From: Macrostomum hystrix
Lineage: Eukaryota; Animalia; Platyhelminthes
Length of the DNA: 64,000 bases
Assembly (NCBI GenBank): GCA_950097015.1
Contig: CATNEN010000033.1
Coordinates: forward strand, 3,100,001 to 3,164,000
Direction: 5' to 3'
The stretch's first letter is position 1. Each line of letters opens with the position of its first letter. The notes beneath the pieces were generated by a model. That model saw only the letters and a list, made by a program, of their open reading frames with translations, did no database searches and was not told the origin of the DNA. This document shows, piece after piece, positions 1 to 48,950 of the stretch. The translations under genes were made by a program, and so were the position numbers.

Positions 1-324
1 AAAATACCATCACCAACAATCATAAGCACAAACGTAAGCATTATTGTTTGTATTTTTTTTGTTTGTAAACGTTCATATTATTTTAATACTCAAAGCAATT
101 TCGCATAAATACAGCAGTTTGTATTTGTTTTAGAACATGTTCTTTCGGAAAAATATGTTCATCATCGTATCGTTAGTATTTTTGCAAAAAAACTGTCATT
201 ATTTTTCATTCACAGGTATTCAATACAATATATAGATAGTATATAGTCTTTTCGCGAAAAAATGCACTCATGACTCTTGGCAATTTGCAGAAATACTAAA
301 TACTAACTTAGTCTAATAATATGC

Positions 325-900
325 ATGTATTTTCGCGAAAATACCTTAAGATATAGCCACGCATATAACCTACTTTAATAACTTTTGCAAAAATACCGCC
401 AACTACCTTTGTTTAATAGCATAGCAGTATTTTCGCGAAAATACCTTAAGATATAGCCACGCACACAACTTCAAGAACTTTTGCAAAAATACCGCCAACT
501 ATCTTTGTTTAATAGCATAGCAGTATTTTCGCGAAAATACCTTAAGATATAGCCACGCATATAACCTACTTTAATAACTTTTGCAAAAATACAGCCAACT
601 ACCTTTGTTTAATAGCATAGCAGTATTTTCGCGAAAATACCTTAAGATGTAGCCATGCACACTACTTTAATAACTTTTGCAAAAATACCGCAAACTACCT
701 TTACTACCTGCGTTTAATAGGATAGCAGTATTTTCGCGAAAATACCATAATATGTAGCCATGCACACTACTTTAAGAACTTTTGCAAAAATACCGCCAAC
801 TACCTTTGTTTAATAGCATAGCAGTATTTTCGCGAAAATACCATAATATGTAGCCATTCACACTACTTTAAGAACTTTTGCAAAAATACCGCTATTTACT
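325..900. repeat. Tandem array (~6 copies) of a ~96-105 bp unit containing the perfect 18-bp palindrome GTATTTTCGCGAAAATAC and the palindrome TTTTGCAAAA
   Basis: TTTCGCGAAA recurs at ~331, 431, 527, 627, 732 and 828 with conserved intervening sequence. Confidence 0.9.
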
Positions 901-1275
901 TTCGGATAAAAGTCGTTATTTTATTTTCGCGATAACACCTATAAATGAATTTTATTAATTAATACTTTGACACTTTGCATATACCTTCGTTTGAATGCTT
1001 AATACTATATATAGTAATAAGAAATATGATTTTTTTGCAACAGAAGTAGCAATTACCTACTTCACAACAATAAAAGCTCAAAACTGAGCATATAAATTGA
1101 TTTTATTTGTATGACTAATTATAAAATTGCATACAAAAACAGTATGAAACAGTAAAAAATATAAAAAAACAGCTGAAAGACTGACTGAATGACCGAGTAA
1201 AAATATAGTCGATAAAATAGCAGCATGCAGGCAGTTTGGTGTAAAAAAAACCTGCTAGCAGCACCTGCTTGTCGC

Positions 1276-1893
1276 TCATACTCGCCGGTCCGGGTGATCG
1301 CCAAACACATTGCGTATTGGGTGGCATTGTCCATCGCATTGGTAGTCGGGCTTGAGAGAATGACCAACGAAGATGGAAACTACCGGACGCTTGTGCCCAT
1401 CAGGTGTCGGTTCTAATCGGCGCTGAAAGTCCTCCGAATACGCACTGACCGGAGCATGCCCAGCAAGCACTAATAGTCGATCGAGCCAAGAGACGTGTCG
1501 AATAGCCTTGTATTTGGCATTGACTTCAAAAGTGTCTCCATTGATCAATCGAAGTAGTGTGCACATGACTTCAGATGAGTCATCAAACAGATTCGGGCGT
1601 AGCTCGTCAATAAACATGGCAGTGTGTATAGTCTCGCAGAGCTTGTCAAACAGAAACGTGTTAGACCGCTTCTGCACCTGGACAGTCAGCACCTTCGTAG
1701 AACCGAGATGGCTTTGCACAGAGTGTGTCTTCCCAACGCCAGACGGGCCGTATAGATAGACGACACCAGTTGGCGATTGTAACGCTCTGCACACAGCCTT
1801 TACTGTTGGGCACACGTTAGTGGCGGCGATCAACCGGGGAACATGAGCGACGGCGGCATCAGGAAATTGGACAGCATCAGCAGCAGCAGGGAC
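1276..1893 (-). CDS. Gene A copy 1, exon 2: SF3 (AAA+) helicase domain, Rep/NS1-like
   Basis: Walker A YLYGPSGVGKT, Walker B MFIDE, B'-like LLRLINGDTFEVNAKYK, motif-C position LVLAGH and Arg-finger-like FQRRL. The frame is open up to the AG acceptor at 1894; 618 nt = 206 codons including the stop. Confidence 0.85.
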   Translation of the reverse strand, partial: VPAAADAVQFPDAAVAHVPRLIAATNVCPTVKAVCRALQSPTGVVYLYGPSGVGKTHSVQSHLGSTKVLTVQVQKRSNTFLFDKLCETIHTAMFIDELRPNLFDDSSEVMCTLLRLINGDTFEVNAKYKAIRHVSWLDRLLVLAGHAPVSAYSEDFQRRLEPTPDGHKRPVVSIFVGHSLKPDYQCDGQCHPIRNVFGDHPDRRV

Positions 1894-2038
1894 CTGTTGG
1901 ATGGTAGGTAGTTTTGCATATAATTAATTAATTGTCGATTGAGTTAATAATTTTTTGATTCAAAGGAACAGCAAAAATTCAATGATCAATACTTATAAGT
2001 GTGCTAAGTAATCTTATGGCTTATAATATTTTGCATAC
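1894..2038 (-). other. Predicted phase-0 GT-AG intron joining gene A exon 1 to the helicase exon (copy 1)
   Basis: Minus strand reads GAG|GTATGC...CCAACAG|GTC. The interior is AT-rich and splicing restores one reading frame. Confidence 0.75.
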
Positions 2039-4421
2039 CTCCAGCTGAGTAGGCAAGGTCGTCCTCGCATAGTCGGCTGTTGCAGCATCATCAGCAGCGG
2101 CGGCGGCGGCAGCGGCAGTAGGGCGACAGTTTTGGCAACCAGCTAGCACCTCTGTTGCTATTACGCGTTTCATCTGAGTCACCTTAAAGTAATCGCTGAG
2201 CTCTTGTCTGACACGAAAGTGTTCGAACATGAAGCCACTATCTAGCAAAGGCTCAGTTTTCGACGCCTCATGAGCAGCAACCCAGCAAAAGGCCTTGGCC
2301 AGCAAGCTGCACTCTTGAGTAGAAACGCGGAAAAGAGCTGGAAACTCGTCCGTACTGGTAACTAGCTTAATTGCACTTGACGCACTGCGTACACCAGACA
2401 CTGTCATTCTACACATTGTAGGATGCAGGTAGGCCGAAGCTTCCGCAGATTCCTCCATCAAAAGGGCATGCAGTCCGCAGTAAACAGTGTAACCATCTTC
2501 TGGTTGGCGCAGGTTCAGGAACATCAGCAAACCATTGGGATGATTCGGAGCTCCTAAACATTCACGGATTGACATGTTGTATTTCTGCTGACGACGCGCT
2601 CGGATTTCTTCGCTGGTCAGCATGTCAACCTGAATACATGATGTTGTGCCGATGGCAAACTGTGCACATGGAGCTACCAATTCATCTTCTAGAAACGCCT
2701 TGAATTTTTCCACATCGCTCGAGATGAATGCAATCTCTATAAGATGTAGCGTCCTTCTAGTCATAAGAACCGACCTGCCCTCTGCTGTTAAAGAGGCGTA
2801 GTCGGTAATTGGAGCTCGAGGACATAGAAGTGGTGATGTCGAACGACACAACGCATATTCATCGGCTATCGGAGCAAATGCCACGCCACCAACTTGCTGC
2901 TGCTGCTGTTGCCGCTGCTGCGGTTGTTGATCTCGCTGATGATGCTGCTGCTGCGATTGCTGCCGTCGTCCCGACTGTTGCGCTGTTGATTCAAAAGCGT
3001 CGACATACGCTGGAGAAAATACTGCGAGAGCTGGTTCATCATCATCGGATATTGTCCCATTCTCGATGACAGACATTGCCGGTGTAGAGCGAGGCGCATA
3101 ATCTGGCGAAGTCGGACAGGCACCAAGTGCGGCACTATTTTTAGGAATAGTCGACTCGCCATTTACGCGCAATAATTCTGCCACCTCTGTTTTGTACTTA
3201 TCATCGACTAGCTGCGATGATGAGGCTGAACTATTAGAGGCCGTCAAAACGGGGGCAGTATTTGACTCTACATTGTCTGTATTGCTGATGAAGTGGTGAT
3301 GTCGAACGACACAACGCATATTCATCGGCTATCGGAGCAAATGCCACGCCATCGTCTTGCTGCTGCTGCCGTTCACGCCCTTGTATCTGCTGCCGCAGCT
3401 GCTGCCGCCACTGCTGCTGCTGCGGCTGTTGCTGTGGTTGTTGCTCTCGCCGTTGATGCTGCTGCTGCTGCTGCTGCTGCGATTGCTGCAGTCGTCCCGA
3501 CTGTTGCGCTGTTGGTTGAGAAGCGTCGACATACACTGGAGAGAATACAGCGCGAACTGGTTCATCAGCATCGGATGTTGTCCCATTCTCGATGACAGAC
3601 ATTGCCGGTGTAGAGCGAGGCGCATAATCTGGCGAAGTCGGACAGGCACCAAGTGCGGCACTAGTTTTAGGAATAGTCGACTCGCCATTTGCGCGCAATA
3701 ATTCTGCCACCTCCGTTTTGTACCTATCATCGACTAGCTGCGATGATGAGGCTGAGCTATTAGAGGCCGTCAAAACGGGGGCAGTATTTGACTCTACATT
3801 GTCTGTATTGCTGATGAACTCGTCCATAATCTCCAGCTGTACGTCGTCTGCTAGCAAGTCGTCCGCTGATTCATCTTCAGATGATAGCACTTTAGGCGTG
3901 GACTCTATGCGATCAGCATGGTCGCCGGCGCCACAAATTGGTTGGGCAGCAATAACCAGAGGCTGTCGCATGGCTACTAGAGATCCAACGCCAGTGTCTT
4001 CAGCATCAGACGACGATGAATTGCTAGACGAAGCATCCAAATCGACAACTGTACGCGTCCGCTTGCGTAGAGTCGATCGGGCATATCGACGCTTCCGAAT
4101 TGCACTCGATAGGACAGTCTGCTTCGGCTGCTGCTGCTGCTGCTGCTGTTTCGACTGCTGCTGCTGCTGTTGCTGCTGTATTACTGCAAGGCGGGGAACA
4201 GTGAAGGCAGCCGATGCCCGACCAGCCGTTCCTGCCATTGCTGTAAATGATGCCGATGATGCTTGCACACTCGGTCTAGATGCTGCGCCAGTAGGACGAT
4301 CGGTTGACTGCTGAGATCTAAAGTAGTCCACGATCATAGTCTGGCGTAGACCATTAGCATCCGGTGTAGCAATGCTGGCATCCACACGAGCCTTCTTTCC
4401 ACGGCCACGAAATGCTGACAT
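2039..4421 (-). pseudogene. Gene A copy 1, exon 1, frameshifted by an internal ~460-bp tandem duplication
   Basis: ORFs 3234-4433 and 2021-3325 together match the single ORF 14538-16409. The segment ISNTDNVES...RSTSP occurs twice, with a junction at ~3292. Confidence 0.8.
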
Positions 4422-4902
4422 TTCAAAATTCAAGTCGAGGCGTAGGAATTAACTCGTAATTACTCGGTCGGTCAGTCAGTCGGTCACAAAGTAGATGTTA
4501 AGCGCGCTCAGTCTTACATAGCTCACTTTTGCGACTGTACTCAACTGTAGTTCTAGATTTGACTACAGACAAAACTTTTTTTCGCGAAAATTCACTCGTG
4601 TGTATTGCAATCCCCAATTCGCAAATACTAATAGATAAAATTTCTATGGCTATTTCGCGAAAAAACCATTACAAGTATATAGACTAGCCATGTTAATTCA
4701 ATTACTTTCGCAGTATACTTTACTACTTCAGGTGCAATCGGCACTACTATAAGTAATATTGCAGTAGTAAGTCAACATTAATAATAATGGGGATCCACAC
4801 AAAAAGTGTGGATTCCAATATAAAAAAAACTGATTCCTAGTAAAAATTTATTTTCATTTCTAGTATAATGTTGCCTATTTTTTTTAAATAAAAAAATGCG
4901 TT

Positions 4903-4974
4903 GGGGTGAATGGGATTCGAACCCGAGCCACTTGTACTAGCGACAATGCATTAGACCTGCATGCCAGTTCACTA
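4903..4974 (-). ncRNA. tRNA-like Pol III unit 1 (tRNA-derived; non-canonical anticodon arm)
   Basis: Minus strand: A-box-like TGGCATGCAGGT, D stem GCAT/ATGC, B box GGTTCGAATCCC, 5-bp GTGAA/TTCAC pairing, then a T7 tract about 8 nt downstream. Confidence 0.55.
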
Positions 4975-5576
4975 ACAATAAAAGTGTGTGTTGTCTGGCT
5001 ATTTATATTGCTTTTCTTTCGCATGTTGTATTCTTATGAACCTTTTGCAAAAATACTGCCCTTACCTTTGTTTTGGGAACATAGCAGTATTATCGCGAAA
5101 ATTCTGTGTCTTAGACAATAGAAATGTCTATGTCTATTTCGCGAAAATACCATCTAAACTATCACAAGTATATAGACTAGCCATGTTAATTCAGTTACGT
5201 TCGCAGTATACTTTACTACTTCAGGTGCAAGCAGCACTACTTCAAGTACTATTGCGCAACTATGCATTTAATATTGTTTGAATACACATTTGTACTTTCG
5301 CGAATATATACCGGCTGCTGTAGCCGCACAATCTCAGATTTATTTGCATAAGTACGGCAGTAAAAGACAAGACACTTCGTCTGAAAAAATTCGCAAAAAG
5401 ACATGTGTCCCAAATGAAAGTAAAGGCATTATCAAAAGGAATTAACTGGCGTATTCGAGCAAAAGTACGTTAATAATAATGGGGATCCACAAAAAGTGGG
5501 GATTCGAATATAAAAAAGACTAATTTTAATTTTCATTGATAGTAGAATGTTAGCTGCTTTTTTAATAAAAAAAAGT

Positions 5577-5650
5577 AGGGCTGACTGGGATTCGAACCCG
5601 AGCCACTGGTATTAGAGAGAAATGCCTTAGACCTGCACGCCAGATCACTA
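5577..5650 (-). ncRNA. tRNA-like Pol III unit 2
   Basis: Diverged paralog of unit 1: TGGCGTGCAGGTCTAAGGC...GGTTCGAATCCC followed by a T8 tract. Confidence 0.5.
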
Positions 5651-6047
5651 ACAATCAAATAGTGTGTTATCTGGCTATTTATATTTATTTTCTTTCGCAT
5701 GTTCGAGTTTTAATGACGTTTGTCTGCAAATGGTGAAATCTTGACCACTAATACAATTTTTTTTCTAACAGACTGATAATATTTATTCAGCGAATATAGA
5801 GAGTACTTCAGGAATGTTTTGCAAAAATACTACCCTTATCTTTGTTTTGGAAACATATCAGTATTTTTGCGAAAATACTTTAATTCATGAATATGCATAG
5901 ACAATAAATACACTTTTCGCGAAAATACCAGCATTTGAGTCTATTCGCAGCCAAGTCAGTTTTCGAATCGACATCCATCACATATATGTACGGATATGTG
6001 ATTCAGGCAGCCGATGCTGCTTGCCCACTCGGTCTATACGTATAAAC

Positions 6048-6652
6048 TAGAGTTTACGGACTTAGAGAATTTTATCATGTCAGTGATAAAATTTTCGACC
6101 GTCCCAAGAGCTTAGTTGGTGTGGCTGGTGGAGTAGTAAATGCTATACAGGCAGGTATATATATATACTCTTAAGAAAGGTGCGCGAGTTGTTTTTTCGC
6201 AACTTGACTTCGCTACTCGACGTCGTCGGCATATGGGGGCTAGTATATAGCCGGGCTGGCTGAACCCCGGGCGATTCGATTCTATTTTTAGCTTAAGGCG
6301 CACCTTTCTTAAGAGTATATACATACAAGCTGGCTCGTGTGTATTTAAATGGCAGCCTATTGAAGTCTATGGGGCACGCAAGCCAGTATATACTCTTAAG
6401 AAAGGTGCGCCTTAGGCTAAAAATAGAAACACCATGCATTTTCGGTCATCTAGTAATTACTAGTCGTCATCAAGCCCGATCTAGATATAATCTCCGTCAT
6501 ATTGCCTCCAGCGAAAGTGTACAGCGCGCACCTTTCTTTAGAGTATATACTAGCTGGCTCGCTCTATCCCGCCCCGATCTCACTACACTATTTAAGCCTT
6601 GGGACGGTCGAGAATTTACGTTTATAAATTCTCTAAGTCCATAAACTCTTAT
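6048..6652. repeat. ~600-bp nested imperfect palindrome H1 (copy 1), with a core hairpin at 6280-6428
   Basis: 43-bp arms 6280-6322 and 6386-6428 have one mismatch. The motif GCGCACCTTTCTTAAGAGTATATA lies in mirror positions at ~6160-6187 and ~6525-6552. An outer inverted pair lies at ~6050-6113 and ~6593-6650. Confidence 0.9.
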
Positions 6653-6667
6653 AATTGGAGTGCTGCA

Positions 6668-6720
6668 TGGTGTGGTGTGGTGTGGTGTGGTGTGTGGTGT
6701 GGTGTGGTGTGTGGTGTTGG
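6668..6720 (+). repeat. (GGTGT)n/(GT)-rich simple repeat next to H1
   Basis: Visible directly; a longer homologous tract is at ~17372-17452. Confidence 0.9.
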
Positions 6721-8060
6721 GTGGGTGGATGCAGAGTGCAGGTGCAGGTTGGGTAGGTGGTGCATGGTGTCTCACTCTCATATCCTCCCTTCACTCTGTC
6801 CTAGCTTCCTCCCCTACCTTCGCTTTCCTCCTCTTCCTTTCTTCGATCTACCCTGATCCTTTATTCACTCTCCCTCGCTATCAATTTCCTCCTGTACTAT
6901 CCTCCAAATATGTCTTCGCAAAAGAGTAACACATCAGTACAATGAATCAATAAATACAATGAATCAGTCGTACGAATTTGGGTGGGTGGATGCAGAGTGC
7001 AGGTGGTTGGGTAGGTGGTGGTGTCTGACTCTCTGCATATCCTCCCTTCACTCTGTCCTAGCTTCCTCCCCTATACCTTCGCTTTCCTGATCCCCTTCCT
7101 TTAATCTGATGATTCTGGATTCAGGATTCTGGATTCTGATTCAGGATCTGATGATCCTGATCCTCTCTTCACTCTCCCTCGCTTTTACTTTCCTCCTGTA
7201 TACTATCCTCCAAATATTTTTTCGCGAAAGTAACACATCAGTACAAATCTACAATCTGTGCAGTCAACCTACTTTTGCTTTCCTCCCCTTCCTTCGATTT
7301 GATCCTCTCTTCACTCTCCCTCGCTTTCACTATCCGCCAACTATGTTTTCGCGAAAGTTACACGTCAATAAATGGTACCAGAGTGCTTTTGTTGGAACGA
7401 TCAGTTGAGATCAGTTCGAAGAAACTGAAGCATCCAAAGCCAAAAACAAAAGCCGAAATCCAAATTTGCAGCTTCTTCTAGCTGCAACTCACTGACTAGC
7501 CAGTTTCTGCACTGCTATAGCTACTACTTACAGCAGGCGCATGCGTAGCTGAAAAGACATTTTTTATCTCCTTAGTGTATTTCTTGCACACGTCTATGGC
7601 TGTAAATAGTAGCACGCAAAAAGCCGAATGACCTTTTTTTTGATCTCCGTAGTGTATTTCTAAATATAGAACATTCTATATGGACTATCCCAATTAGGGT
7701 CGTCGTCTCTGGGGAAAACTCGCACCGATTTAGAATACACGTACAACAGAGGTCCGTTTTGGTCTTGCTGGGGCCTTGGCTGGGGCTTGGCTGGACCAGA
7801 CCCCCCCTTTCAACATTTTAGGAACATAATATCTCAGACTGATCGATTACGATTACGTCGGTCTTGTAATAAGTCTCAACGCCAATGTACACCGCATAAC
7901 CGCCAGTCAGTTTAGTACATATTATTTTAATGATAGAATAAACAAGATAAGAAGTTGTGTACTATTAACGATTATACAAATAACAAACACTAAATTATTT
8001 ATATTTATTAATTATTTATATTTTAAAACGGATGACCGGTGCAGAGCAATGCTGACTGCT

Positions 8061-8148
8061 CGCATTGCCGTCAGGCCGCACGTTAGCCAGCTGAAAGCAT
8101 TCAGAAAAAAGCTGAAATCTGACTAACGTGCGGCCTGACGGCAGTGCG
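8061..8148. repeat. Branched hairpin H2, copy 1
   Basis: Arms CGCATTGCCGTCAGGCCGCACGTTAG and CTAACGTGCGGCCTGACGGCAGTGCG, with inner stems CAGCT/AGCTG and CTGAA/TTCAG. Confidence 0.85.
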
Positions 8149-9260
8149 TGAGCAATAGCCAGCTGATATCATAGCAGCTTCCGTTGAAGGACGCGAAAAT
8201 ACATTCTACTGTTCAACCAGTATGTGACATGTCGCAGTATGTGAACCACGGAACCGTCCCACCGAATCACTATACACTACAATACCGTAGCAGTCCGGTG
8301 TGACGATACTGTCTTCCACAAGAGCCTTCTTACCTTTTTACCACTGCCACATTATACACAGATCTCAAGTAGTCAACTTGTTTTCGTTTTGACTTAATAC
8401 GTATGTACTTTCGCGAAAAAAAAGTTGGCAGTGCGCAAACACTAATTATAGATGAAATGTCTGGCTATATTCGCGAAAATACCATAGATATAGCCACGCT
8501 ACTTAAAGAACTTTTGCAAAAATACTGCATACAATATGAATTATATGCAGCCGTTTTTTGTGTCTACGGCCAAAAACGTCTGACTGTATTTTCGAAAGAA
8601 AAAATGTGGATACGAATAAAAAAATCGCGAAAAATCGAGCTGTACCAAGCAGACATGTCTTTGGTAAAATACGCAGAATTTAATGCACTACATACCTATA
8701 GTCTGCACGTTTTAATAGTGCATCTTGGAATATCTTATATCTAGCGATACGAAAGTGTATAATAATTAATTCGTCGTTTGTACTTTACTTTCTCAAACTT
8801 ATCTAACTTATCTAGCTAACTTATATGTATTTATAATGTACGATAATAGTTACATTACTGCACGCCTACAATTTCATATAATATACGAAATCCAAGCTAA
8901 GAAAAAACAGTAAGACGTATTAAGCATTTTAATCAATTAATACTTCAATCAATATTTATATTTTTATATCAATTTAATCAATTAATCAATCTGTCTATAT
9001 TGAGCATAGAAAAATTAAACTGAAATTTAAAGAATTATGGAGACCAGCAGCGTCTGATCAATTTTTATCGGCTTAACTCAAATTTACAACTATTATCTCT
9101 TAATCTGCTTATGGGATTTAAACACATCAAATTTAATCAATTTAATAAATCTGTAAATTGAGCATAGAAAAATTAAACATAAAATTCAGAATTGAAGAAT
9201 CAATTAGTTCAATCAGTTAATCAGTCAATCAGTCTTCAATTAACGCACCGCTCCCCTCGG

Positions 9261-9631
9261 TCATAGGACACCCGGCTGCGGGATAAAGGATGGGTTTTAG
9301 GTTTCATTTAGTTTGTTAGCTCAGATGTTATCAGATGTGTTATTAATAAATATTCAAATGCAAATAATAATCGAAATCTACTACTCACATAAGGATCCAG
9401 CCCCGCAGCTATGCGGCGAGCCCTGGCCATGCGAAGCATGGCCGCTTTGACCCGCCGCATAGCTGCGGTGAGATTCTGCTCCACCCGGCGCCGTTCCGGC
9501 GTCCAGGCCTCCACTGCCGCCACCTCAGTTGCCGCCTCAATCGCATTGTTTAATGCCTTCTCCAGTTCTTCGACAGCGGAAGCCAGGACGAACGCCCGAA
9601 ACGGCGCCGGGAACATAGGGAAATTTGCCAT
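9261..9631 (-). CDS. Gene B copy 1: ~85-aa Ala/Arg-rich helical protein; exons 9631-9389 and 9275-9261, intron 9276-9388
   Basis: TAT|GTGAGT donor, GCTAAC branch point and CCCGCAG acceptor. The terminal exon PGVL* is conserved in five copies. Confidence 0.75.
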
Positions 9632-9877: not shown

Positions 9878-10258
9878 ATGTCGTTCATTGCCCATCAGAT
9901 GCAGTTAGTGCAAATGTATCTTCACCCGCACATATTTCAACTCTTTCTCAGCTGTCGCATAGATTGCATTGGCCGGTTTATAGCGCATCGAGGGTGCTTC
10001 GAGCAGCTACATAGTTTGCAGCGCGGTGTTCCAAATGCTGAGTATAGCGCTAATGAGTTATGCTTATTATTACGGCGCACTCAAGAATGGCTGCAACAGC
10101 ACCGGTCAGCAGAAGACTATAAGGCTGTCTTGTTCGTGACTGGTGTAAGAGACGATGATGCACAAGACAACATCGAAGTGCTAGAGCTTTTCGAGGAAGC
10201 CCAAGCTGAACTCCAGCTCATCATACATGGAGTTCGCTACTGGTACATCGAACAATGA
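9878..10258 (+). CDS. Gene C copy 1: 126-aa protein of unknown function
   Basis: ATG-initiated ORF conserved in four copies, divergent from gene B. Confidence 0.7.
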   Translation: MSFIAHQMQLVQMYLHPHIFQLFLSCRIDCIGRFIAHRGCFEQLHSLQRGVPNAEYSANELCLLLRRTQEWLQQHRSAEDYKAVLFVTGVRDDDAQDNIEVLELFEEAQAELQLIIHGVRYWYIEQ

Positions 10259-10763: not shown

Positions 10764-11245
10764 ATGTCATTCAAATCTGGGTTATTAGCAGCACGATTGG
10801 CATTGCCGCGCTCTCTTTCAGTGCCAGTGCCGCCATTGTTGATGCTGCTGCTACTACTTACAATTGGTGACTGTATATCGGTCACTTGCGCATGCTGCGG
10901 CAGTTGCAATTGTTCGGATCACGTTCTAAATCACGTGTTCAATTGTTCTAAATCACGTGTCGGATTGGTGTTCACAATAGAAAATCTCTGATAGTAAATG
11001 CGCACGACACCTGGACGATGCAATACGTACTGAACACGTTGACGTGAAGGCAGAATAGCAAAATCGGAGTCTGAACTACTATCCGAGCTGTGCCTTCGTC
11101 GACGTCGCTCAGTGCCAATCACGACATCCGTGCTGTTACTGACGGTAGGGCACGAGATCGGTTTGTCGTTGCCAGAGTTGTGATCCTCTCTGTCGATATC
11201 TCGATCTCGATCTCCGCCATTGTGCCGCCCACCCAGGGATGACAT
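10764..11245 (-). pseudogene. Gene D copy 1, frameshifted by a small duplication at ~10915-10960
   Basis: Matches intact ORF 46935-47390. GTTCTAAATCACGTG is duplicated and gives a premature stop. Confidence 0.6.
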
Positions 11246-11479: not shown

Positions 11480-12046
11480 ATGCCTACATCAACATCATCA
11501 TCAGGGCCAACTCTAAACGATGCGGAACGAAACGAATCCAACTGTCACGACGATGACGTTAAGCTGAATGAAGAGCCAGGCTATGATGACTACGGGTATG
11601 ATGAAACATACAATTCAACATACAGTTTTGTATTCGGCCTGGCAGACGACCATTTGTTATACGCCGTAGCTGAAGAGGTCGAAGCGGCGATGGCAGCCAA
11701 TTGCTTTGACCCAGCTGATGACGAGCTTTTGTATGCAGCAGCTGAAGAGGGGGAGGCGTCAGCAGCAGCGGCAGCGACGGCAGCCAGTAGCTGTTTATTT
11801 GACCCAGCTGATGACGAGCTTTTGTATGCAGCAGCTGAAGAGGCGGAGGCGTCAGCAGCAGCGGCAGCGATGGCAGCCAGTAGCTGCTTGTTTGACCCAG
11901 CTGATGACGAGCTTTTGTATGTCGCAGCTGAAGAGGCGGAGGCGTCAGCAGCAGCGGCAGCGATGGCAGCCAGTAGCTGTTTATTTGACCCAGCTGACGA
12001 CTGCCTATTGTATGCCGGAGCTGAAGAGGCGGAGGCATACGTTTGA
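11480..12046 (+). CDS. Gene E copy 1: acidic protein with ~31-aa DPADDELLYAAAEEAEASAAAAAMAASSCLF repeats
   Basis: ATG ORF; four paralogs with in-frame repeat-number variation. Confidence 0.7.
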   Translation: MPTSTSSSGPTLNDAERNESNCHDDDVKLNEEPGYDDYGYDETYNSTYSFVFGLADDHLLYAVAEEVEAAMAANCFDPADDELLYAAAEEGEASAAAAATAASSCLFDPADDELLYAAAEEAEASAAAAAMAASSCLFDPADDELLYVAAEEAEASAAAAAMAASSCLFDPADDCLLYAGAEEAEAYV

Positions 12047-34505: not shown

Positions 34506-34880
34506 TCATAGTACACCGGGCTGCGGGATGAAAGATGGGTTTTAGGTTTCATTTAGTTGTTAGCTCGGGTTCAGATATGTCAATAAAGATTCAAATGAAA
34601 ATAAAAGTCAAAAGTTACTACTGACATAAGGGTCTAGGCCAGCAGCTATGCGGCGGGCCCTGGCCATGCGAAGCATGGCCGCCTTAACCCGCCGTATAGC
34701 TGCGGCCATGGACGCATCCGCCTTACGTCCTCCTCGCGTCCATGACTCCGACGCCGCCACTGCTGTCGCTGCCTCACTGGCTTCGTCTAGGGCCTCTTCC
34801 AGCTCATTGGCGGCGGAGGCCATTACGAATGCCCTAAATGAAGCAGGAAAAAGATGAAATCCGTTGCTGCTGCTTGACAT
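34506..34880 (-). CDS. Gene B copy 4; exons 34880-34626 and 34520-34506
   Basis: MSSSSNGFHLFP...LDPY|PGVL*, donor GTCAGT. Confidence 0.7.
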
Positions 34881-35176
34881 TTAGAATTTTGACTGCTGTT
34901 GCTGTTGCTGCTGTGGCGTTGGTTGTGGGCAGATTTCTTGGCCGATAAGATATTTCTTGTTCTTATTTCCCAGACCGGCCTGTATTCATTTGACTTGTCT
35001 GTGGACTGACTCACCTGTGTTTGCTAAAGTATACTCTATGGGGACTTTGATTAAAGTTGAAAATATTTTTAAATTAACTATTTTTTTAGCTTTATGCTGG
35101 CTTGATTTACTAATGCTGGCTTGATTTACTAACTGACTGAACATGTCGTTCATTGCCCATCAGATGCAGTTAGTGC

Positions 35177-35394
35177 TGTAAGAGCCGGCGAAATTTAGAT
35201 TGTCAGAAAGTACGCACGAGTTTATTTGGCATAACGATTCAATATATACGAGCAGGGCAGTGATGAGCACGATGAATAATAAAATAGGCTAAAGCCAGCC
35301 CCACCCCCAAGCGGGTGAAAGGCCGACGCCATGTACATTTAGACCAATCAGACAAGACGAGCCAACGCACAACACACCATGCAGGAACCCCACA
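35177..35394 (-). repeat. 3' LTR of the Gypsy element
   Basis: Direct repeat of 40053-40263, adjacent to the PPT. Confidence 0.95.
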
Positions 35395-35524
35395 TTACTC
35401 TCCCCCAAGAAAAGCGCAAGGGGAAGCAACAAAAAAAGGCAATAAAACACAACGAAAAAAATTCAAAATGCATAACAAAAATAGTCCAAAAACTACAGTC
35501 CCTGTCACACAGTACCTAACTTGG

Positions 35525-38500: not shown

Positions 38501-39205
38501 CGTGACTGGAGTGCATCCCAGATTGCACACCCGCACTGGGATTCTTCCATCGTTCGAAGACACTGCGAACACTCGGCAGGGCAGCACTCCAGTTTTGTCA
38601 ACGAACTCCTGGGAAGGTTCGAAAATGCCCTGGGCCTGCTTTGTTTCGATTGCCACCTTGACAACCTTCGTCGCTCTCGGCGGCACGACTACAGCGTCTT
38701 GAACTCGGGCGATGAGCACCGTGGGAACCATGCAGCAGGACGACGACGCTCCTCGTTCAGACTCGGTGCTGCTGAACGGGACGGAAGCCTTGTCAAAGGT
38801 AACCGTCTGGGCCTTCTGGTCGATGCTAAATTGCGATGAAGCCATCCTGCTGATGAAGTCCATTCCAAGGATGAAGTCAGGCCGAATTCCTTTCACCACC
38901 AGCACTTCGAGATGGCTGGTCAGCTGCTTGCCCAGTCGCACCGACAGGCTTATACTGCCCAGCAGCTCGAGGGTGGTGCCATCCACCGATACCGGTTTAA
39001 CCTCTGCTGGTTTCAGGTCGTTGCTGACCCCAAGCGATCTCACGGCGATGTCGCTGATAAGAGATGTCTGCGCTCCGGTGTCCAGCAGCCACCGGCACGG
39101 CATGCCATTCGCTAGGCCAGGAATAAAAATAGCATGCAGAACGGGATTGCTCCTGTGGGTTGGTGTGGGTCCCGCACCCGTCGCACCAACCCTTAGAAGT
39201 TTCCC
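35525..39205 (-). CDS. pol: Pol polyprotein (protease, RT, RNase H, integrase), probably expressed by a -1 frameshift
   Basis: LLDTGA protease, YIDD RT, RNase H (CDSS...DRELLAVVW...DALSR), integrase HHCC and QLDIKGP; integrase follows RNase H (Gypsy order). Confidence 0.95.
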   Translation of the reverse strand, partial: GKLLRVGATGAGPTPTHRSNPVLHAIFIPGLANGMPCRWLLDTGAQTSLISDIAVRSLGVSNDLKPAEVKPVSVDGTTLELLGSISLSVRLGKQLTSHLEVLVVKGIRPDFILGMDFISRMASSQFSIDQKAQTVTFDKASVPFSSTESERGASSSCCMVPTVLIARVQDAVVVPPRATKVVKVAIETKQAQGIFEPSQEFVDKTGVLPCRVFAVSSNDGRIPVRVCNLGCTPVTLYSNQNIGTFESADIVEEDEDLHDWRGPADQFNINPDLPAVDGDRLKALLAQFADVVSAHEFDVGTSGAAQHKIELEDCAHPIRQRPRRVPHAFRKQVDEKLAQMQKHGVIEPSSSPWASNLMIVRKKNNDIRVCVDWRALNSLTVKDAHPLPHLHQALDSLAGCTWFSTIDMRQGFLQVEVREEDRPLTAFYTPSGLMQFRKMGFGMCNAPATYQRMMELIMTGLSWEEVIAYIDDLIIFNKDFGSHLQSLSNVLQRLRSAKLKLNPGKSFFAYRKVTYLGHEVSESGIAPSAEKVEAIRQMPDPRSDQDVRRILGMLSFYRRFVPNFSDIAKPLHHLAQKSAGGFAWTDEHAAALAKLKDALTQAPVLQLPDFNRPVTISCDSSAVALGAVLSQERDGEDLPVAYASRTLSKAERNYSTTDRELLAVVWSLKQFRMYLSNSSRIQLFTDHKPIIGLLNTKEPAGRLARWLQLIQEFPLEILYRPGKENIVPDALSRAAAVQFKTANLPEEQDLDQILHAARQAMLQPDFQVPAAVSSAVHRLMPGLSMSPAGALLHNGLPVIPQHMREELLQQAHDLPSAGHLGQRRVLRALQARAWWPEMREDVRDWVRSCTVCQRRKGAPKRARAELVRQPLPARPWSIVQLDIKGPLPATASGKRYILCFVDTFSKWVETAALSQIDAKTVAEALVTAVVLRHGVLEVVHSDQGRQFEAELFKETCALLGTEKSRTSPFHPSGNGNVERFNRTLGNMLSAFCAANQTSWDILLPYVVWAYNSSAHSSTGESPFKVLRGMEPRQPADLLLGVQGQQDLPRSCEDIQARIRRGFQVVRANLQSAQSSQHAFYNRGAETVEFKVGDLVMLTNQAMKRGQCKSLSNRWSGPYTIIKKVGPVNYRVRSENGRRKLLVHHDRMKPFVSRTDNAATQPAAQPATQPASQPAALPAAADASHDPELDGPGTWELLREPAASECQGGPRRSGRQRRPPDYFRASW

Positions 39206-40019
39206 TGGGCCTTGGATGGGCAGACGGAGGCTTTGTGCCCCTTCCCTGAGCATTTGTGACAGATGATTGGGCCCAGCTTCTTCTCGCGCTGGCGACAATG
39301 AGCTGCCAGGTGCCCGGGCTGACCGCAGCTGAAGCAGGCGCCTGCTCGTTGGTGCCGGCGTCGCCGAGGATCGCTGCCTGGCTGCACGCTGACCCTGGCG
39401 ATGAGCTCCTCCATGCACCGCTCCAGCCGATCGAGGCGGTCAGATGTCGCATGAATTTCCGTAGTAGTGGCGCCAACAGCCTTGACTGCTGTAACTGATG
39501 GTCGCCCTACCAGACCTTCCAGTCGGGCTGCTCGCTGCAGCATAGACTCCAGGCTGCAAGTCTCCGCGTCCTCTGCCTTTAAAAGGCTGTCGCGGATGTC
39601 AGGATTGAGCAGGTGCAGAAGCTTGAAACGCACGTCCCGATCTCGCTGCTGTGTTGAATCGTTCGGCCTGGCCTTCTGATGAAGCAGCCTCAGGTTAAAG
39701 CACAGCTCGCGTAGCGTCTCGTTCTCTCCGCGCTTCCTTGCGTGGAATGTGTTCATGGCCTTGAAGCTGTCAGACTCGCCACCATAAAATTTTGTAAGCG
39801 CGGTTTCAATTTCCTTGTAGCTCTTCTGCTTCGTCGGCTCGAGATCCCAGACGATCAGTTGCGCCTCTCCAGTGAGCAACAGTTTGACTTTTGACGCCGA
39901 TGTTTCGTCGTCCCACTTTGCATCCTGGCTGAATTCCTCAAACATACGCAGCCATCTTCGCACGTCAGTGTCGTCTGTGCCACTAAACTTTGGCGGCATA
40001 AGTGCATTTGAGTAGGCCA
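39193..40019 (-). CDS. gag: Gag with two CCHC zinc knuckles (probable start MAYSNALM; the listed ORF extends into the LTR)
   Basis: CFSCGQPGHLAAHC and CHKCSGKGHKASVC; PPKFSG motif. Confidence 0.9.
39199..39205 (-). promoter_or_regulatory. -1 ribosomal frameshift slippery heptamer G GGA AAC
   Basis: X XXY YYZ pattern in the gag frame just before its stop; a -1 slip enters the pol frame (GKLLRV). Confidence 0.8.
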
Positions 40020-40052
40020 TTAGAGCTCTGGGTTCTAGCTCGCTGCCACCAA

Positions 40053-40263
40053 TGTAAGAGCCGGCGAAATTTAGATTGTCAGAAAGTACGCACGAGTTTA
40101 TTTGGCATAACGATATACGAGCAGGGCAGTGATGAGTACGATGAATAATAAAATAGGCTAAAGCCAGCCCCACCCCCAAGCGGGTGAAAGGCCGACGCCA
40201 TGTACATTTAGACCAATCAGACAAGACGAGCCAACGCACAACACACCATGCAGGAACCCCACA
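40053..40263 (-). repeat. 5' LTR of the Gypsy element
   Basis: Direct repeat of 35177-35394, followed on the minus strand by the PBS. Confidence 0.95.
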
Positions 40264-40909
40264 GTGCAAATGTATCTTCACCCGCACATATTTTAACTCT
40301 TTCTCAGCTGTCGCATAGATTGCATTGGCCGGTTCATAGCGCATCGAGGGTGCTTCTAGCAGCTACCTAGTTTGCAGCGCGGTGTTCCAAATGCTGAGTA
40401 TAGCGCTAATGAGTTATGCTTATTATTACGGCGCACTCAAGAATGGCTGCAACAGCACCGGTCAGCAGAAGACTATAAGGCTGTCTTGTTCGTGACTGGT
40501 ATAAGAGAGGATGAAGCACAAGACATCATCGAAGTGCTAGAGCTTTTTGAGACCGCCCAAGCTGAACTCCAGCTCATCATACATGGAGTTCGCTACTGGT
40601 ACATCGAACAATGAATGCTGTAAAATACAGAATTTATACAGAATTTTATGTATTATAGTTTACACGTTTATTTTTGCTCTCGCGACTTTGCAAATCAGAC
40701 TAATTGTAGAATAGCACGATTATTTGTTCAATCAATGAAATTTTACATATATTTATACTTTATATATATGTATTGGTGAAATTTAATAATAGCCGTATTA
40801 ATAATAACCGATTGACTAGCTGCACACATCTGTGTTCGCGTATTAATATTTTATTACTGACTGATCTCATCAGTCAACTGATTATGGTTAAATAATGGTA
40901 AACGCGACT

Positions 40910-42777: not shown

Positions 42778-43076
42778 TTGAGCATTAGCCAGCAGATATC
42801 TTAGCAGCTTCCGTTGAAGGACGCGAAAATACATTCTACTGTTCAACCAGTATGTGACATGTCGCAGTATGTGAACCACGGAACCGTCACACCGAGTCAC
42901 TATACACTACAATACCGTAGCAGTCCGGTGTGACGATACTGTCTTCCATAAGAGCCTTCTTACCTTTTTACCACTGCCACAATATGCACAGATCTCAAGT
43001 AGTCAACGATCATAGTTGTTTTGACTTAAGAATACGTATGTACTTTCGCGAAAAAAAATTTGGCAGTGCGCAAATA

Positions 43077-43910
43077 TAGCTTTTTGCAAATGAATTCAGC
43101 CTATCTGCAAAAGCTTTCAGCCAGCCAGGGCCAGCCCATTGAGTGGAAGCCAGAATTCCCCATAGACAATTGGCTCATCCCGCAGAACAATTCAGCCAAT
43201 CTGCAATATAATTCGTCCAATGCCAATTTTTAACTGCATGCAAACCAATACAAAATAACTCTGTAACTCTGTAACTATGTAACATGGGCTCCAACATTGA
43301 AAAATATAAAAACAATTGGTAAGTTCTTGAGTTCATGAATTATAGCAAAATTAGAAAAGAATGTCTTCGCGGTTCAAGCACCGTCCGTAGTAGCGAGTGG
43401 TGTGATGGCTCCACTGCATGCATTTCTCCCTGGTAATCACCGGCAGTGCAGCCTCCACCTCCCGTTTGAGAATGAGCATTCGCCAAGCATGCAGAGTCAG
43501 ATTTGCCGCAGCTGGCCCATTTGCAATCTCCTGCTGCATATTGGGAGCCGACAGAGTTCGCTTGACTGCAGCCTTGACGCATGAACCGGCGCACTCAGCA
43601 GGGTTGAGAAATGGAGAGTAAGGTTGAGTAATGAAAGGTTTTGCGGCTTTGTGGGTAGCAGAAGCAAGTTGTCTATGGCAGAAAGCACCCTACGTAACTT
43701 TTCTCACTGGAGTTCTATGGGGGACTGCCACTGCGACAAACAACGTTAAGTTGACTGGCTGAAAGGTTTTGCGGATAGGCTGAATTGATTTGCAAAAAGT
43801 TCTGCGGGATGAGCCAGTTGTCTATGGGGAATTCTGGCTTCCACTCAATGGGCTGGCCCTGGCTGGCTGAAATGTTTTGCAGATAGGCTGAATTCATTAG
43901 CAAAAAGCTA
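43077..43910. mobile_element. Non-autonomous TIR DNA transposon (MITE-like), 834 bp
   Basis: ~112-bp TIRs at 43077-43188 and 43799-43910 (TAGCTTTTTGC...). TA duplication relative to the empty site GCGCAAATACTAATT seen at ~19935. Confidence 0.9.
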
Positions 43911-44712
43911 TACTAATTATAGATGAAATGTCTGGCTATATTCGCGAAAATAACATAGATATAGCCACGCTACTTAAAGAACTTTTGCAAAAATACTGCA
44001 TAAAATATGAATTATATGCAGCCGTTTTTTGTGTCTATGGCCGTTTTTTCGAAAGAAAAATTTGGATGCGAAGAACATAAAAAATCGCGAAAAATCGAGC
44101 TGTACCAAGCAGATATGTCTTTGGTAAAATACGCACAATTTAATGCACTACATACCTATAGTCTGCACGTTTTAATAGTGCGTCTTGTAATATCTTATAT
44201 CTAGCGATACGAAAATGTGTAATAATTTATTCGTCGTTTGTACTTTACTTTCTCAAACTTATCCAACTAACTTATATCGCTGTATAATGTACGATAACAG
44301 TTGTATTATTGCACGCCTACAATTTCATATAATAAACGAATTCTAAGCTAAGAAACAAAATAAATGTAACAAAAAATTACTATATTAGTCTTCGTATTTT
44401 TGTGGCATGTTTATTGGTCTGGGATAATCCAAGCATTTAGGGCATTTTAAAAGTAAATTGAGCATTAAATAGTGAATTAGTGAATAGTGAATAGTGAATT
44501 AAATAGAGAATTTTCCTTAACAAAAAATTCGTTTCTTTTTGTTTGTCAGATAATCAGATTAATTGATCAGTATAATCAGTATATCAGCACTAATCAGTAT
44601 AATTGATAGTCAGATAATCAAATCAATAGGTTTCTTGTTCATATTGAGCGCATTATATTGTTTGTCTTTAATCAGTTTGCTTCATTTTAATACAGCAGCA
44701 GACGATGCTCGA

Positions 44713-45114
44713 TCATAGGACACCCGGCTGCGGGATGAAAGATGGGTTTTAGGTTTCATTTAGTTTGTTAGCTCAGATGTTACCATGCAGATGTGTAGCA
44801 GCAGCAGTCGACAGTGCATGCAGATGTGTTCATAATTATTCAAATGAAAAGAATCGAAATCTACTACTCACATAGGGGTCCAGGCCCGCAGCTATGCGGC
44901 GGGCCCTGGCCATGCGTAAAAAGGCCGCCCTGACCCGCCGCATAGCTGCGGTAAGATGTTCTTCCGCCCGGCGCCGTCCCGGCGTCCAGGCCTCCGCCGC
45001 CGCCACCTCCATGGCCGCCTCCATCGCCTCCGTCATCGCCTTCTTTAATGCGGCGGCGGCGGAAGCCAATACATGTTGCCGGAACGCAGGTGGGAAGACT
45101 GGGAAGGTTGACAT
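44713..45114 (-). CDS. Gene B copy 5; exons 45114-44872 and 44727-44713
   Basis: MSTFPVFP...LDPY|PGVL*. Confidence 0.75.
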
Positions 45115-45343: not shown

Positions 45344-46467
45344 ATGTCGTTAATTGCCGATCAGATGCAGTTAGCACAAATATATCTTCAGCCGCACGTA
45401 TTTCAACTCTTTCTCAGCTGTCGCATAGATTGCATTGGCCGGTTCATAGCGCATCGAGGGTGCTTCGAGCAGCTACATAGTTTGCAGCGCGGTGTTCCAA
45501 CTGCAGAGTATAGCGCTAATGAGTTATGTTTATTATTACGGCGCACTCAACAATGGCTGCAAAAGCACCGGTCAGCAGAAGACTATCAGGCTGTCTTGTC
45601 CGTGACTGGTGTAAGAGAGGATGAAGCACAAGACATTGTGACGTTGTCACTTGTTGAAGGCGCCCCTGCGATATTACTCTATGCGTTGCTTACATGCTTA
45701 ATTTCCTAATTATGTACTAGCTTGGGCCGTTTTAACTCATCGTATAATATCATCCAATTCTGTTAATTTATTTTATTAAGTCAAATTATTAGCGCGCTAC
45801 TGTCAGTAACCATAAACGCATATCGCGCCATTCTAGCTATTTCTTACGCGTATCTTAATGTATTTCCCCCCCGGCCAATGAGCGTGCGAGCTCTGGTTGG
45901 CCGGAAGTATCGATCGCTATGTTTTTCAGTTAGCCTAGTTTACTTAATCAAGGGCTTCAGGCCCGCTCGCGTCTCACTTTCCTTCCCGCTCGCGCTTCAC
46001 TTTCTTAGTTCAGTCGTTCGCACTTCAGTCAGTCATTCCTAGTTCTGTCGTCATTCATTCTTTTCTCACATTCTTTCTACCTGTCTACGTTTCGTGCTGT
46101 GCCATCCTCTCACTACACTCCTACATTCGGTTCTATTCGTGTCCAACCATCACCATTAACGAGCTCCTACGCCTTACATAACGCCCTGCTTGTCGACGTC
46201 CCAGTGCACCCAGAATAAAAGTGCTACCGCTACATCACAGACATTACTGACTTTGAATTGCCAAACTTACAATTGCCGCCGCATTGACTTCGACTTCGTC
46301 CTTTGTGTTTTAATCGTCACAACATCATCGAAGTGCTAGAGCTTTTAGAGGAAGCCCAAGCTGAACTCCAGCTCATCATACATGGAGTTCGCTACTGGAT
46401 GACTATTCAACAAAGGGAACGTCTAAGAGCGAGGCTTCGGGAACGGCAAAATGTGATCGAACAATGA
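45344..46467 (+). pseudogene. Gene C copy 4 (long variant), interrupted by a solo LTR
   Basis: The reading frame resumes (IIEVLELLEE...VIEQ*) after 46325. Confidence 0.8.
45637..46321. mobile_element. Probable solo LTR, 685 bp
   Basis: TGTGACG...CGTCACA ends, 4-bp TSD ACAT and AATAAA at ~46214. Confidence 0.8.
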
Positions 46468-46934: not shown

Positions 46935-47390
46935 CTACATGTCATTCAAATCTGGGTTATTTGCAGCACGATTGGCATCGCCGCGCTCTCTTTCAGTGCC
47001 AGTGCCGCCATTGTTGATGCTGCTGCTACTGCTTACAATTGGTGACTGTATATCGGTCACTTGCGCATGCTGCGGCAGTTGCAATTGGCCGGCTAAATCA
47101 CGTGTCGGATTGGCATTCACAATTCCAAATCTCTGATTGTAAATGCGCACGACACCTGGACGATGCCATACGTACTGAACACGTTGACGTGAAGGCAGAA
47201 TAGCAAAATCCGAGTCTGAACTACTATCCGAGCTGTGCCTTCGTCGACGTCGCTCAGTGCCAATCACGACATCTGTGCTGCTACTGACGGTAGGGCACGA
47301 GATCGGTTTGTCGTTGCCAGAGTTGTGATCCTCTCTGTCGATATCTCGATCTCGATCTCCGCCATTGTGCCGCCCACCCAGGGATGACAT
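46935..47390 (-). CDS. Gene D intact copy: 151-aa Ser-rich protein with an RRRRRHSSDSSSDSD patch
   Basis: ATG ORF with three homologous copies, divergent from gene E. Confidence 0.55.
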   Translation of the reverse strand: MSSLGGRHNGGDRDRDIDREDHNSGNDKPISCPTVSSSTDVVIGTERRRRRHSSDSSSDSDFAILPSRQRVQYVWHRPGVVRIYNQRFGIVNANPTRDLAGQLQLPQHAQVTDIQSPIVSSSSSINNGGTGTERERGDANRAANNPDLNDM

Positions 47391-47625
47391 GTTGTAGTTT
47401 TTTTTATTTGAAACAATAATTAAGAATCTAAAATGTGTAAATAAGTTACGCCACTTACCTTAGTAAAGTAACCAACTAAAAACCCTATTGCTAGTCTATG
47501 GTAACAAGCTTGCTGATAATCTTATGTGATTGGGAATATGTAATCAATGCAGTTGAAACTTTGGACAATTAATGAAGTAAATAAAACAAGTTCAACATTT
47601 TACATACTGCCCCCATTGTCTCGCC

Positions 47626-48000
47626 ATGCCTACATCAACATCATCATCACGGCCAACTCTAAACGATGCGGAAAAATCCAACTGTCACGACGATGACGTT
47701 GAGCTGAATGAAGAGCCAGGCTATGATGACTACGGGTATGATGAAACATACAATTCAACATACAGTTTTGTATTCGGCCTGGCAGACGACCATTTGTTAT
47801 ACGCCGTAGCTGAAGAGGTCGAAGCGGCGATGGCAGCCAATTGCTTAGACTCAGCTGACGACGAGCTTTTGTATGCCGCAGCTGAAGAGGCGGAGGCGTC
47901 AGCAGTAGCGGCAGCGATGGCAGCCAGTAGCTGTTTATTTGACCCAGCTGACGACTGCCTATTGTATGCCGCAGCTGAAGAGGCGGAGGCATACGTTTGA
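47626..48000 (+). CDS. Gene E copy 4 (124 aa)
   Basis: Homologous ATG ORF with two repeats. Confidence 0.7.
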   Translation: MPTSTSSSRPTLNDAEKSNCHDDDVELNEEPGYDDYGYDETYNSTYSFVFGLADDHLLYAVAEEVEAAMAANCLDSADDELLYAAAEEAEASAVAAAMAASSCLFDPADDCLLYAAAEEAEAYV

Positions 48001-48479
48001 AATTATATTATAAAATAATGCAGAAACTATGATTCATTACAGTAATTTTATAAATGAAGCCTCTGATTATCATAACGATTTGATATACATATTGGTGTTG
48101 TTTTGTTAGTGATTGAAAATACACTAATCTTTTCGTGAAAATACCATCACCAACAATCATCAGCACTACGTAAGCATTATTGTTTGTATTTTTTTGTTTG
48201 TAAACGTTCATATTATTTTAATACTCAAAGCAATTTCGCATAAATACAGCAGTTTGTATTTGTTTTAGAACATGTTCTTTCGCAAAAATATGTTCATCAT
48301 CGTATCGTTAGTATTTTTGCAAAAAAAACTGTCATTATTTTTCATTCACAGGTATTCAATACAATAGATAGTATATAGTCTTTTCGCGAAAAAAAGTCCA
48401 CTCATGACTCTTGGCAATTTGCAGAAATACTAAATGTGTCTATGGTTAAAAATGTACAAGATTCTTAGTCTAATAATAT

Positions 48480-48950
48480 GCATGTATTTTCGCGAAAATA
48501 CCATAAGATGTAGCCATGCACACTACTTCAAGAACTTTTGCAAAAATACGCCAACTACCTTTGTTTAATAGCATAGCAGTATTTTCGCGAAAATACCATA
48601 ATATGTAGTCATGCACACTACTTTAAGAATTTTTACAAAAATACCGCCAACTACCTTTGTTTAATAGTATATCAGTATTTTCGCAAAAATACCATAATAT
48701 GTAGCCATGCACACTACTTCAATAACTTTTGCAAAAATACGCCAACTACCTTTGTTTAATAGCATAGCAGTATTTTCGCGAAAATACCATAATATGTAGT
48801 CATGCACACTACTTTAAGAACTTTTTACAAAAATACCGCCAACTACCTTTGTTTAATAGTATATCAGTATTTTCGCAAAAATACCATAATATGTAGCCAT
48901 GCACACTATTTCAATAACTTTTGCAAAAAATACTGCCAACTACCTTTGTT
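48480..48950. repeat. Array of the ~96-bp palindromic unit, truncated by TE sequence at ~48950
   Basis: Same unit as 325-900. Confidence 0.9.

Follow-up and report, generated by a model that had tools for sequence, protein, structure and literature searches.

A 64,000-nucleotide stretch of the genome of the flatworm Macrostomum hystrix (assembly GCA_950097015.1, contig CATNEN010000033.1, positions 3,100,001 to 3,164,000; hereafter the window) contains a head-to-tail, shuffled chromosomal array, about 49 kb long, of a six-gene unit of ~12 kb. The genes of this unit, or module, are named A to F. Gene A encodes a superfamily 3 (SF3) helicase that resembles the Rep proteins of CRESS viruses, and a nested palindrome, H1, is a candidate replication origin. 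Judged from its sequence, the element lacks a defining feature of each known family with which it was compared and is a member of none. It is probably virus-derived. The favored reading, to which we assign a probability of about one half, is an integrated, capsid-less replicon of viral origin whose working mode is like that of papillomavirus E1 and polyomavirus large T, i.e., unwinding of the origin without nicking.

Organization of the array

The original prediction held that almost all of the first 48.9 kb is built of the same repeated parts. The copy inventory is based on self-BLAST over bases 1-52,700 and on mapping of reference parts, and it reproduces the predicted counts; the letters A to F were assigned to parts by matching those counts, an inferred correspondence. 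Outside transposable elements (TEs), 1-48,951 comprises 41,181 bases, of which 37,114 recur at a distance of more than 1 kb. Past 48,951, examined to 52,700, no base does. Gene A occurs twice (one copy broken by an internal duplication), B five times (four full copies and one fragment), C four times (two copies split by TEs), D three times, E four times, and F four times, with every F partial or broken. H1 is present in two copies, a second hairpin, H2, in four copies and one partial copy, and an array of 96-bp repeats in four. A seventh recurring block, X, adjoins H2 and carries frameshifting indels. The copies diverge as paralogs, as had been proposed, with identities of 73-78% for B, 94-98% for C, 96-97% for D, 92-99% for the 5' part of E, and 92-99.7% for the 3' part of F.

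In the self-comparison of the array, long-range inverted matches are hairpin arms only and lie within the hairpins themselves. All gene copies are therefore direct repeats, and no units stand head to head. The parts follow a single circular order, A - H1 - F - H2 - X - B/C - D/E - array - A, although some stretches skip or repeat parts of it. Direct copies in one circular order bear out the tandem amplification that was predicted. One turn of the order spans 7823-19399 (11.6 kb) and includes a 5'-truncated F, so the full unit is about 12 kb. Among 12 junctions, those with both donors in register share or add only a few bases and do not fall at a common site. The junctions between parts are non-homologous. 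The left end of the array falls outside the window.

Gene A and its helicase

Copy 2 of gene A (13756..16409, minus strand) encodes 831 aa in two exons. Exon 1 (16409-14556, 618 codons) comprises a basic, poly-Q N-terminus, a middle domain, and a CxxC motif. It is followed by a phase 0 GT-AG intron of 158 nt (14398-14555) and by exon 2 (14397-13756, 213 codons), which contains the CRESS-type SF3 helicase. Copy 1 (1276..4421, minus strand) is a chimera that contains an internal duplication, and its frame is interrupted near 3286-3290. P0001 of Macrostomum lignano (45% identity) is the sole named relative. P0001 and P0003 (JGI) each hold the CxxC end of exon 1 together with the helicase (z 9 and 11; 0/200 shuffles), which indicates that the two exons make one protein.

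The contigs of one public run, X3, stop at 14399 and start at 14554, exactly 2 nt inside either end of the intron, which is the point where the spliced and unspliced forms of gene A diverge. Two genomic intron variants of A share longer ends, and the X3 break points thus indicate splicing. X3, which has organism label B and is marked 'DNA?', is taken as RNA-like from these break points. The contig ends point to a spliced gene A intron, and the acquisition of introns claimed earlier is upheld by this result and by the GT-AG introns in A and B. An unspliced A would read five codons into the intron (14538-14555) and then stop, giving a helicase-less product. This resembles RepA and Rep of mastreviruses, where an intron precedes the helicase and the unspliced form lacks it.

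By sequence criteria, the helicase is CRESS-like and not parvovirus NS1-like. Its best matches in the protein atlas are CRESS Reps (scores 0.94-0.96), and the best viral contig match is a complete-looking 2.1-kb CRESS genome encoding Rep and capsid (L001 1-2128). Gene A and the Rep of this genome have in common Walker A, Walker B, motif B, and the Arg finger, with DELR, LLRL, the motif-B Lys, HAP, and an RR finger among the matching residues (SF3 motifs as given in PMC8406172). The atlas matches and shared motifs agree with the SF3 helicase of small-virus type that was originally predicted. Other viral scans with A returned nothing or weak P-loop matches, while metagenome scans and phage tblastn were empty.

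The middle domain has one relative, P0002 (E 2e-4), among 1.84 billion representatives. An atlas match of this domain to DUF3626 (0.90, recognition 1719) was not accepted, and gene C was rejected as its paralog (BLAST E 0.5, hhalign 0.1%). The two predicted folds of the middle region are both of low confidence (predicted local distance difference test, pLDDT, 32 and 36). A fold search with the pLDDT 36 model gave nothing at E<=0.001, a result that is meaningless at such confidence.

Palindromes, arrays, and small-RNA-like elements

H1 is a nested palindrome of 600 bp. Copy 1 (6049..6649) contains four 24-bp repeats in the orientation + - + -; in copy 2 (16757..17354) the central loop is inverted, and the arms are copy-specific but self-complementary. 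The 24-bp repeat has eight matches over both copies, with 0 expected. Both copies fold far better than shuffled sequence (z -18 and -14; 0/20 shuffles each), as does H2 (z -6 to -8; 0/200 shuffles), in keeping with the predicted hairpins. H2 is found at 8061..8148, 19562-19645, 27886-27981, and 42686-42777, with a partial copy near 33674-33723. The inverted H1 loop has 49 identities to the reverse complement vs. 36 on the same strand, and the two copies (n=2) thus represent the flip/flop isomers that had been suggested. On its structure, H1 is a candidate replication origin.

The arm extensions of H1 are copy-specific: copy 1 duplicated its left flank and copy 2 its right flank. A further element, H3 (23312..23492), is a copy-specific fold-back duplication of sequence downstream of H2. 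The arm extensions, flipped loop, and H3 point to fold-back synthesis at palindromes. Host template switching can likewise produce such marks, and they leave hairpin ends unproven. The original description of the units as hairpin-ended fails, since H1 sits between genes and the hairpins are internal, not at unit ends. No strand-change joint at H1 is found among the 15 contig joints, of 16, that were compared, and contigs cannot show hairpin ends.

Several other features adjoin H1. A GT-rich tract lies beside it (6668..6724, plus strand; second copy 17373-17451), and ~40 bp of the 5' coding region of A is duplicated just left of both copies (5996-6040, 16704-16745). Between gene A and H1 are two tRNA-like elements (4775..5703, minus strand), a duplicated sequence (4775-5030, 5467-5703) with a perfect RNA polymerase III (Pol III) B-box (4913-4923, 5588-5598). 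These pieces are candidates for a short interspersed element or an element-encoded small RNA. They are not called as tRNA (ARAGORN: 0 tRNA genes), and neither they nor the 96-bp array units fold better than shuffles. H2 is of pre-miRNA size, and its arm variants are compensated; it weakly matches the mir-708 model below the gathering score, and all five Rfam matches are under that score.

The 96-bp arrays (327..892, 12531-13087, 31277-31492, and 48484-48951) carry a 12-bp palindrome. It occurs 57 times vs. 0.23 expected, always in module DNA; TEs and flank (11,509 bases) contain 0 copies. The palindrome may be an E2F-type site, a reading for which no supporting paper was found. The array unit and block X have ~65 bp in common and hence a common origin. 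A local tandem repeat of 45 bp (3.6 copies, 25612-25774) is located at the junction before the B fragment.

Genes B to F and block X

The main exon of gene B encodes 81 aa in copy 1 (9389..9631) and is followed by a GT-AG intron. The other copies are at 20832..21089, 34626..34880, and 44872..45114, with the fragment at 25839..25969, all on the minus strand. Gene C is divergent from B, on the plus strand, and is found at 9878..10258 (126 aa), 21354..21788 (144 aa), 35143..40614 (split by a gypsy element), and 45344..46467 (split by a solo long terminal repeat, LTR). Gene D is on the minus strand; copy 1 (10931..11245) is cut short by the stop that a 30-nt insertion carries, and the others are at 29610-30089 and 46935-47390. 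Gene E, on the plus strand, encodes an acidic protein, which in copy 1 (11480..12046; others 26040-26639, 30325-30825, and 47626-48000) has five DDx[LM]LYx[AVG] repeats. The longest copy of gene F (31687..33121, plus strand) has a Cys/His-rich N-terminus, then acidic low-complexity sequence, and is broken near 31848, 31976, and 32444. A 5'-truncated copy is at 18219..19105 (plus strand), and others are at 22196-22544 (tail) and 40910-42134. Block X follows H2 at 8380..8745 (plus strand), with other copies near 19881, 24825, 33808, and 43018.

Across the copies of A, D, E, and F, 17 of 18 indels are multiples of three (p 1e-7). The ratio of nonsynonymous to synonymous substitution rates (dN/dS) is 0.20-0.39 for gene B in 6/6 copy pairs; pooled D and E give 0.44, with the non-repeat part of E near 1. 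The in-frame indels and the B ratios place the predicted accessory genes under coding constraint. In block X, only 3 of 12 indels are in frame, and the block is probably non-coding now. Its reading as a PIF1-like gene was rejected because of frameshifts and the lack of a Pfam match.

No Pfam match at 1e-3 is found among 108 module open reading frames (ORFs; those of >=60 aa, from 185, redundant copies left out), in line with the earlier statement that the module has no recognizable capsid, DDE transposase, polB, or Helitron helicase. The capsid search considered 11 candidate ORFs (best E 0.46), none of which looks like a capsid. Gene B queries of 44-151 aa found no homolog. C, D, E, and F were scanned against Pfam and PHROGs only (E also against PDB), not a large protein database, and at this level five module genes have no known family.

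The copies of B are far more diverged than their C partners, and the variation lies in the 5' half of B. Conceivably, B is a swappable hypervariable cassette that provides specificity or incompatibility alleles. The copies of E have 3-5 repeats each, a number that varies by in-frame indels, and 12 of the 17 repeats over four copies are exactly DDxLLYxA. ETAA1 is reported to bind RPA70N through D606, D607, L609, L610, Y611, and A613 (PMC10479964), and the E repeats carry matching residues. They are a lead as candidate RPA70N-binding motifs.

Inserted elements and public runs

A gypsy LTR retrotransposon (35177..40262, minus strand) is inserted in gene C with a 4-bp target duplication. Its gag (389 aa) and pol (1304 aa) are open, and its LTRs share 96% identity. 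A solo LTR (TG..CA, 45637..46321) also lies in gene C with a 4-bp target duplication. A non-autonomous element in X (43075..43912) is bounded by terminal inverted repeats of 114 bp, has a TA duplication, and is presumably Tc1/mariner-like by the TA rule. An unclassified single-copy insertion is at 23561..24722 (boundaries approximate). The insertions with target-site duplications show that the array is chromosomal and ageing.

Module sequence is present in nine runs of three studies and three organism labels, with at least 0.35 of words in four runs. X1-X5 and X9 were compared in detail; X9 covers little. Depth in X1 is ~840 on gene A vs. 44 on spacer unique in the window and 453 for the array-to-A junction type, and in X2, with a contig set of 23 Mb, it is ~10 over H1; such depths do not represent copy numbers, and the source sample may itself be X1. 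The two public DNA runs suggest many copies. The H1 core is without X3/X4 cover, a lack that is not used as evidence.

The array is followed by TE-like debris (48952-52690), with zinc-finger, gag-like, and transposase-like pieces recognized by eye. From 52697 to 64000 there is a C/T-rich minisatellite of more than 11 kb, with 565 copies of a 20-bp repeat and extreme strand skew, that runs off the window end. It is possibly subtelomeric or centromeric.

Proposed mode of replication and alternative explanations

The observations to be joined are the repeated unit, its direct orientation and circular order, the A intron, coding constraint, the nested palindrome, the TE insertions, and the non-homologous junctions. 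Every step past anatomy and splicing is inferred. Gene A would unwind the H1 palindrome, as the putative origin, for host polymerases, and the unit would exist, or have existed, as a circle. Firing of the origin within integrated copies could proceed as onion-skin re-replication or rolling circles (replication modes as given in PMC3187698), and end joining after re-replication would leave partial, shuffled tandem copies. E may recruit or titrate host RPA via its tandem ETAA1-like motifs. The 12-bp palindrome arrays may be protein-binding sites for expression or maintenance. Polyomavirus and papillomavirus Reps are described as SF3 helicases whose HUH domain is inactivated (PMC6668415), and an integrated human papillomavirus origin is reported to re-replicate in the onion-skin mode, from which circles and rearrangements result (PMC2666264). 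Unwinding agrees better than hairpin transfer with the head-to-tail order, the internal position of the palindrome, the lack of a detectable nickase, and the ragged junctions.

The flipped loop and self-corrected arms of H1 are also what a rolling-circle or rolling-hairpin element would leave, with a very diverged active nickase in A or in trans, H1 as a nicked hairpin, and flip/flop by hairpin transfer. The CRESS-type helicase agrees with this, head-to-tail order suits rolling circles, and by eye CIQ (residue 419) and YCGL (471) stand at plausible motif II/III spacing, with the Tyr aligned to a Tyr of P0002. However, an HUH profile scores -1.3 bits on gene A, and 88 of 300 shuffles score as high. 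Forced alignments give z 0.4 and 1.2, the hhalign probability is 0.3%, and no HUH or YxxK motif is present. Matches to a nonanucleotide of NANTATTAC type number 13 vs. 8.1 expected, with none in H1; there are no inverted units, and the junctions have no fixed site. We regard a nicking element as unlikely. The original claim of a virus-like or transposon-like element stands in its SF3 helicase, introns, accessory genes, and tandem amplification. Its rolling-hairpin part does not, given the direct units, the undetected HUH nickase, and a helicase that is CRESS-like rather than NS1-like.

Similarly improbable is an old endogenized or domesticated cluster, no longer self-replicating, whose passive amplification would be due to unequal exchange and repair by the host in a region rich in repeats. 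Broken copies, nested TEs, the chimeric A copy 1, neighboring TE debris, the 11-kb minisatellite, and spliceosomal introns would all be expected of such a cluster. So would mosaic identities (B at 73-78% beside C at 94-98%) and weak constraint on C and F. Arm correction and inversion, however, distinguish H1 copies whose outer arms are nearly identical, which implies recent synthesis at the palindrome. Moreover, the amplification ends sharply at 48,951 with no host flank included, and several of the junction variants have high depth of their own in X1.

Compact divergent gene pairs of virus-like appearance, Pol III-type elements, a hairpin of pre-miRNA size, and five genes without an assigned family could suggest the integrated part of a larger or segmented DNA virus, with capsid genes elsewhere or unrecognizable. 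This is very unlikely: the gene order comes full circle within ~12 kb, no ORF is capsid-like, and the H1 repeat is unmatched in viral contigs. An assembly artefact, for which a few blocks of 99.5-99.7% identity and the lack of a run contig spanning the region could be cited, is hardly credible, as most copies differ by 4-27%, the TE insertions carry target duplications, the parts occur in the nine runs of three studies, and contigs bridge B-C and D-E.

A number of findings weigh against the unwinding replicon. Direct signs of free circles or of ongoing replication are absent from the contig-level runs, and no integrase accounts for chromosomal entry (0/108 ORFs with a Pfam match). As in a passive, decaying array, TEs have accumulated, and within the window all copies of F and one of A are broken. 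The last exon of gene A matches Pfam RNA_helicase (PF00910) at E 0.006, short of the cut-off. It lacks the sensor-1 Asn, and the corresponding PCV2 mutant, N256A, is reported to be inactive (PMC8406172); the residue is also missing in 6/7 fetched CRESS Reps, and the Rep of L001, like most of its fetched relatives, lacks it. No origin-binding domain was identified in A on the low-confidence predicted folds. With these folds and a narrow HUH profile of 10 sequences, the absence of a nickase is a non-detection only. The dN/dS of A is 0.7, and that of C and F about 1, on few differences in each case. Finally, the E motif is short, was spotted post hoc, and is also like acidic activation motifs.

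If the unwinding replicon is extended to a new class, the joint claim becomes tentative. Such an element would be ~12 kb and plasmid-like, derived from a CRESS virus by loss of capsid and nickase, and maintained as episomes plus tandem arrays. It would have gained introns and host-manipulating genes (a tandem RPA-binding E and the hypervariable B cassette), and its replication would start from a palindromic origin as in a papillomavirus.

Comparison with known systems

Tandem endogenous Rep arrays are described in plants, e.g., GRD in Nicotiana and EGV1 in yam (PMC5014472). Like these and other CRESS-derived elements, the array has a CRESS-type SF3 helicase and chromosomal direct tandem repeats. 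In contrast to them, it has no detected HUH motifs, no stem-loop with a NANTATTAC-type nonanucleotide, and no detected capsid, and its ~12-kb unit combines an 831-aa Rep with five unrelated genes.

Likeness to papillomavirus E1 and polyomavirus large T replicons consists of an SF3 helicase without nicking motifs, a Cys cluster before the helicase, a palindromic site with repeated elements, and rearranged tandem integrants. The helicase belongs to another clade and no capsid genes are detected. The likeness claimed is in working mode only.

In flatworms, PEVE/PIVE of planarians are virus-like elements based on SF3 helicases together with inverted repeats, and they include an integrated relative (PMC3198968); the present element is of similar build. 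As described there, their helicases group with parvovirus NS1 and papillomavirus E1, whereas the helicase here is CRESS-like and the palindrome is internal, without terminal inverted repeats. No PEVE/PIVE protein is among the protein matches of gene A. Tapeworm densovirus integrations are described as head-to-tail concatemers with long hairpins that are partly transcribed, encode NS1 and VP, and carry inverted terminal repeats (PMC6880638). The flatworm host, head-to-tail order, and long hairpins are shared with that description. A palindromic hairpin with flip/flop forms (two copies) is likewise parvovirus-like. Unlike parvovirus or densovirus endogenous viral elements (EVEs), the array gives no Parvo_NS1 or VP domain matches and has no terminal hairpins or inverted junctions.

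Helitrons and Replitrons are both defined by an HUH nuclease; Helitrons have an SF1 helicase and Replitrons have none (PMC10288648). The present element is, like them, a capsid-less eukaryotic element related to Rep replicons, with only an SF3 helicase detectable. Neither the HUH Y2 and PIF1-like SF1 RepHel of a Helitron nor the HUH Y1 transposase of a Replitron is detected. No polB, integrase, or transposase is detected in the module, unlike in a Polinton or DDE transposon. The original judgment that the element fits none of Helitron, Polinton, or a standard parvoviral EVE is therefore retained. No description of the element was found in the literature covered, which leaves out subscription journals and Repbase.

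Significance

Rep-derived mobile DNA of eukaryotes is defined by the HUH nickase, and here only a CRESS-type helicase and a palindromic origin-like site are kept. None of the listed families accommodates this intron-bearing, expressed, multi-gene unit, which may be a rare case of a plasmid-like element in the nucleus of an animal. It could serve as a model for the passage from a small virus to capsid-less selfish DNA and for a shift from nicking to unwinding in replication. If the new-class reading is true, it would independently repeat the nickase-to-unwinding transition from which polyomaviruses and papillomaviruses arose. Even if passive today, the array represents a high-copy repeat family that is unannotated and includes five genes without a known family.

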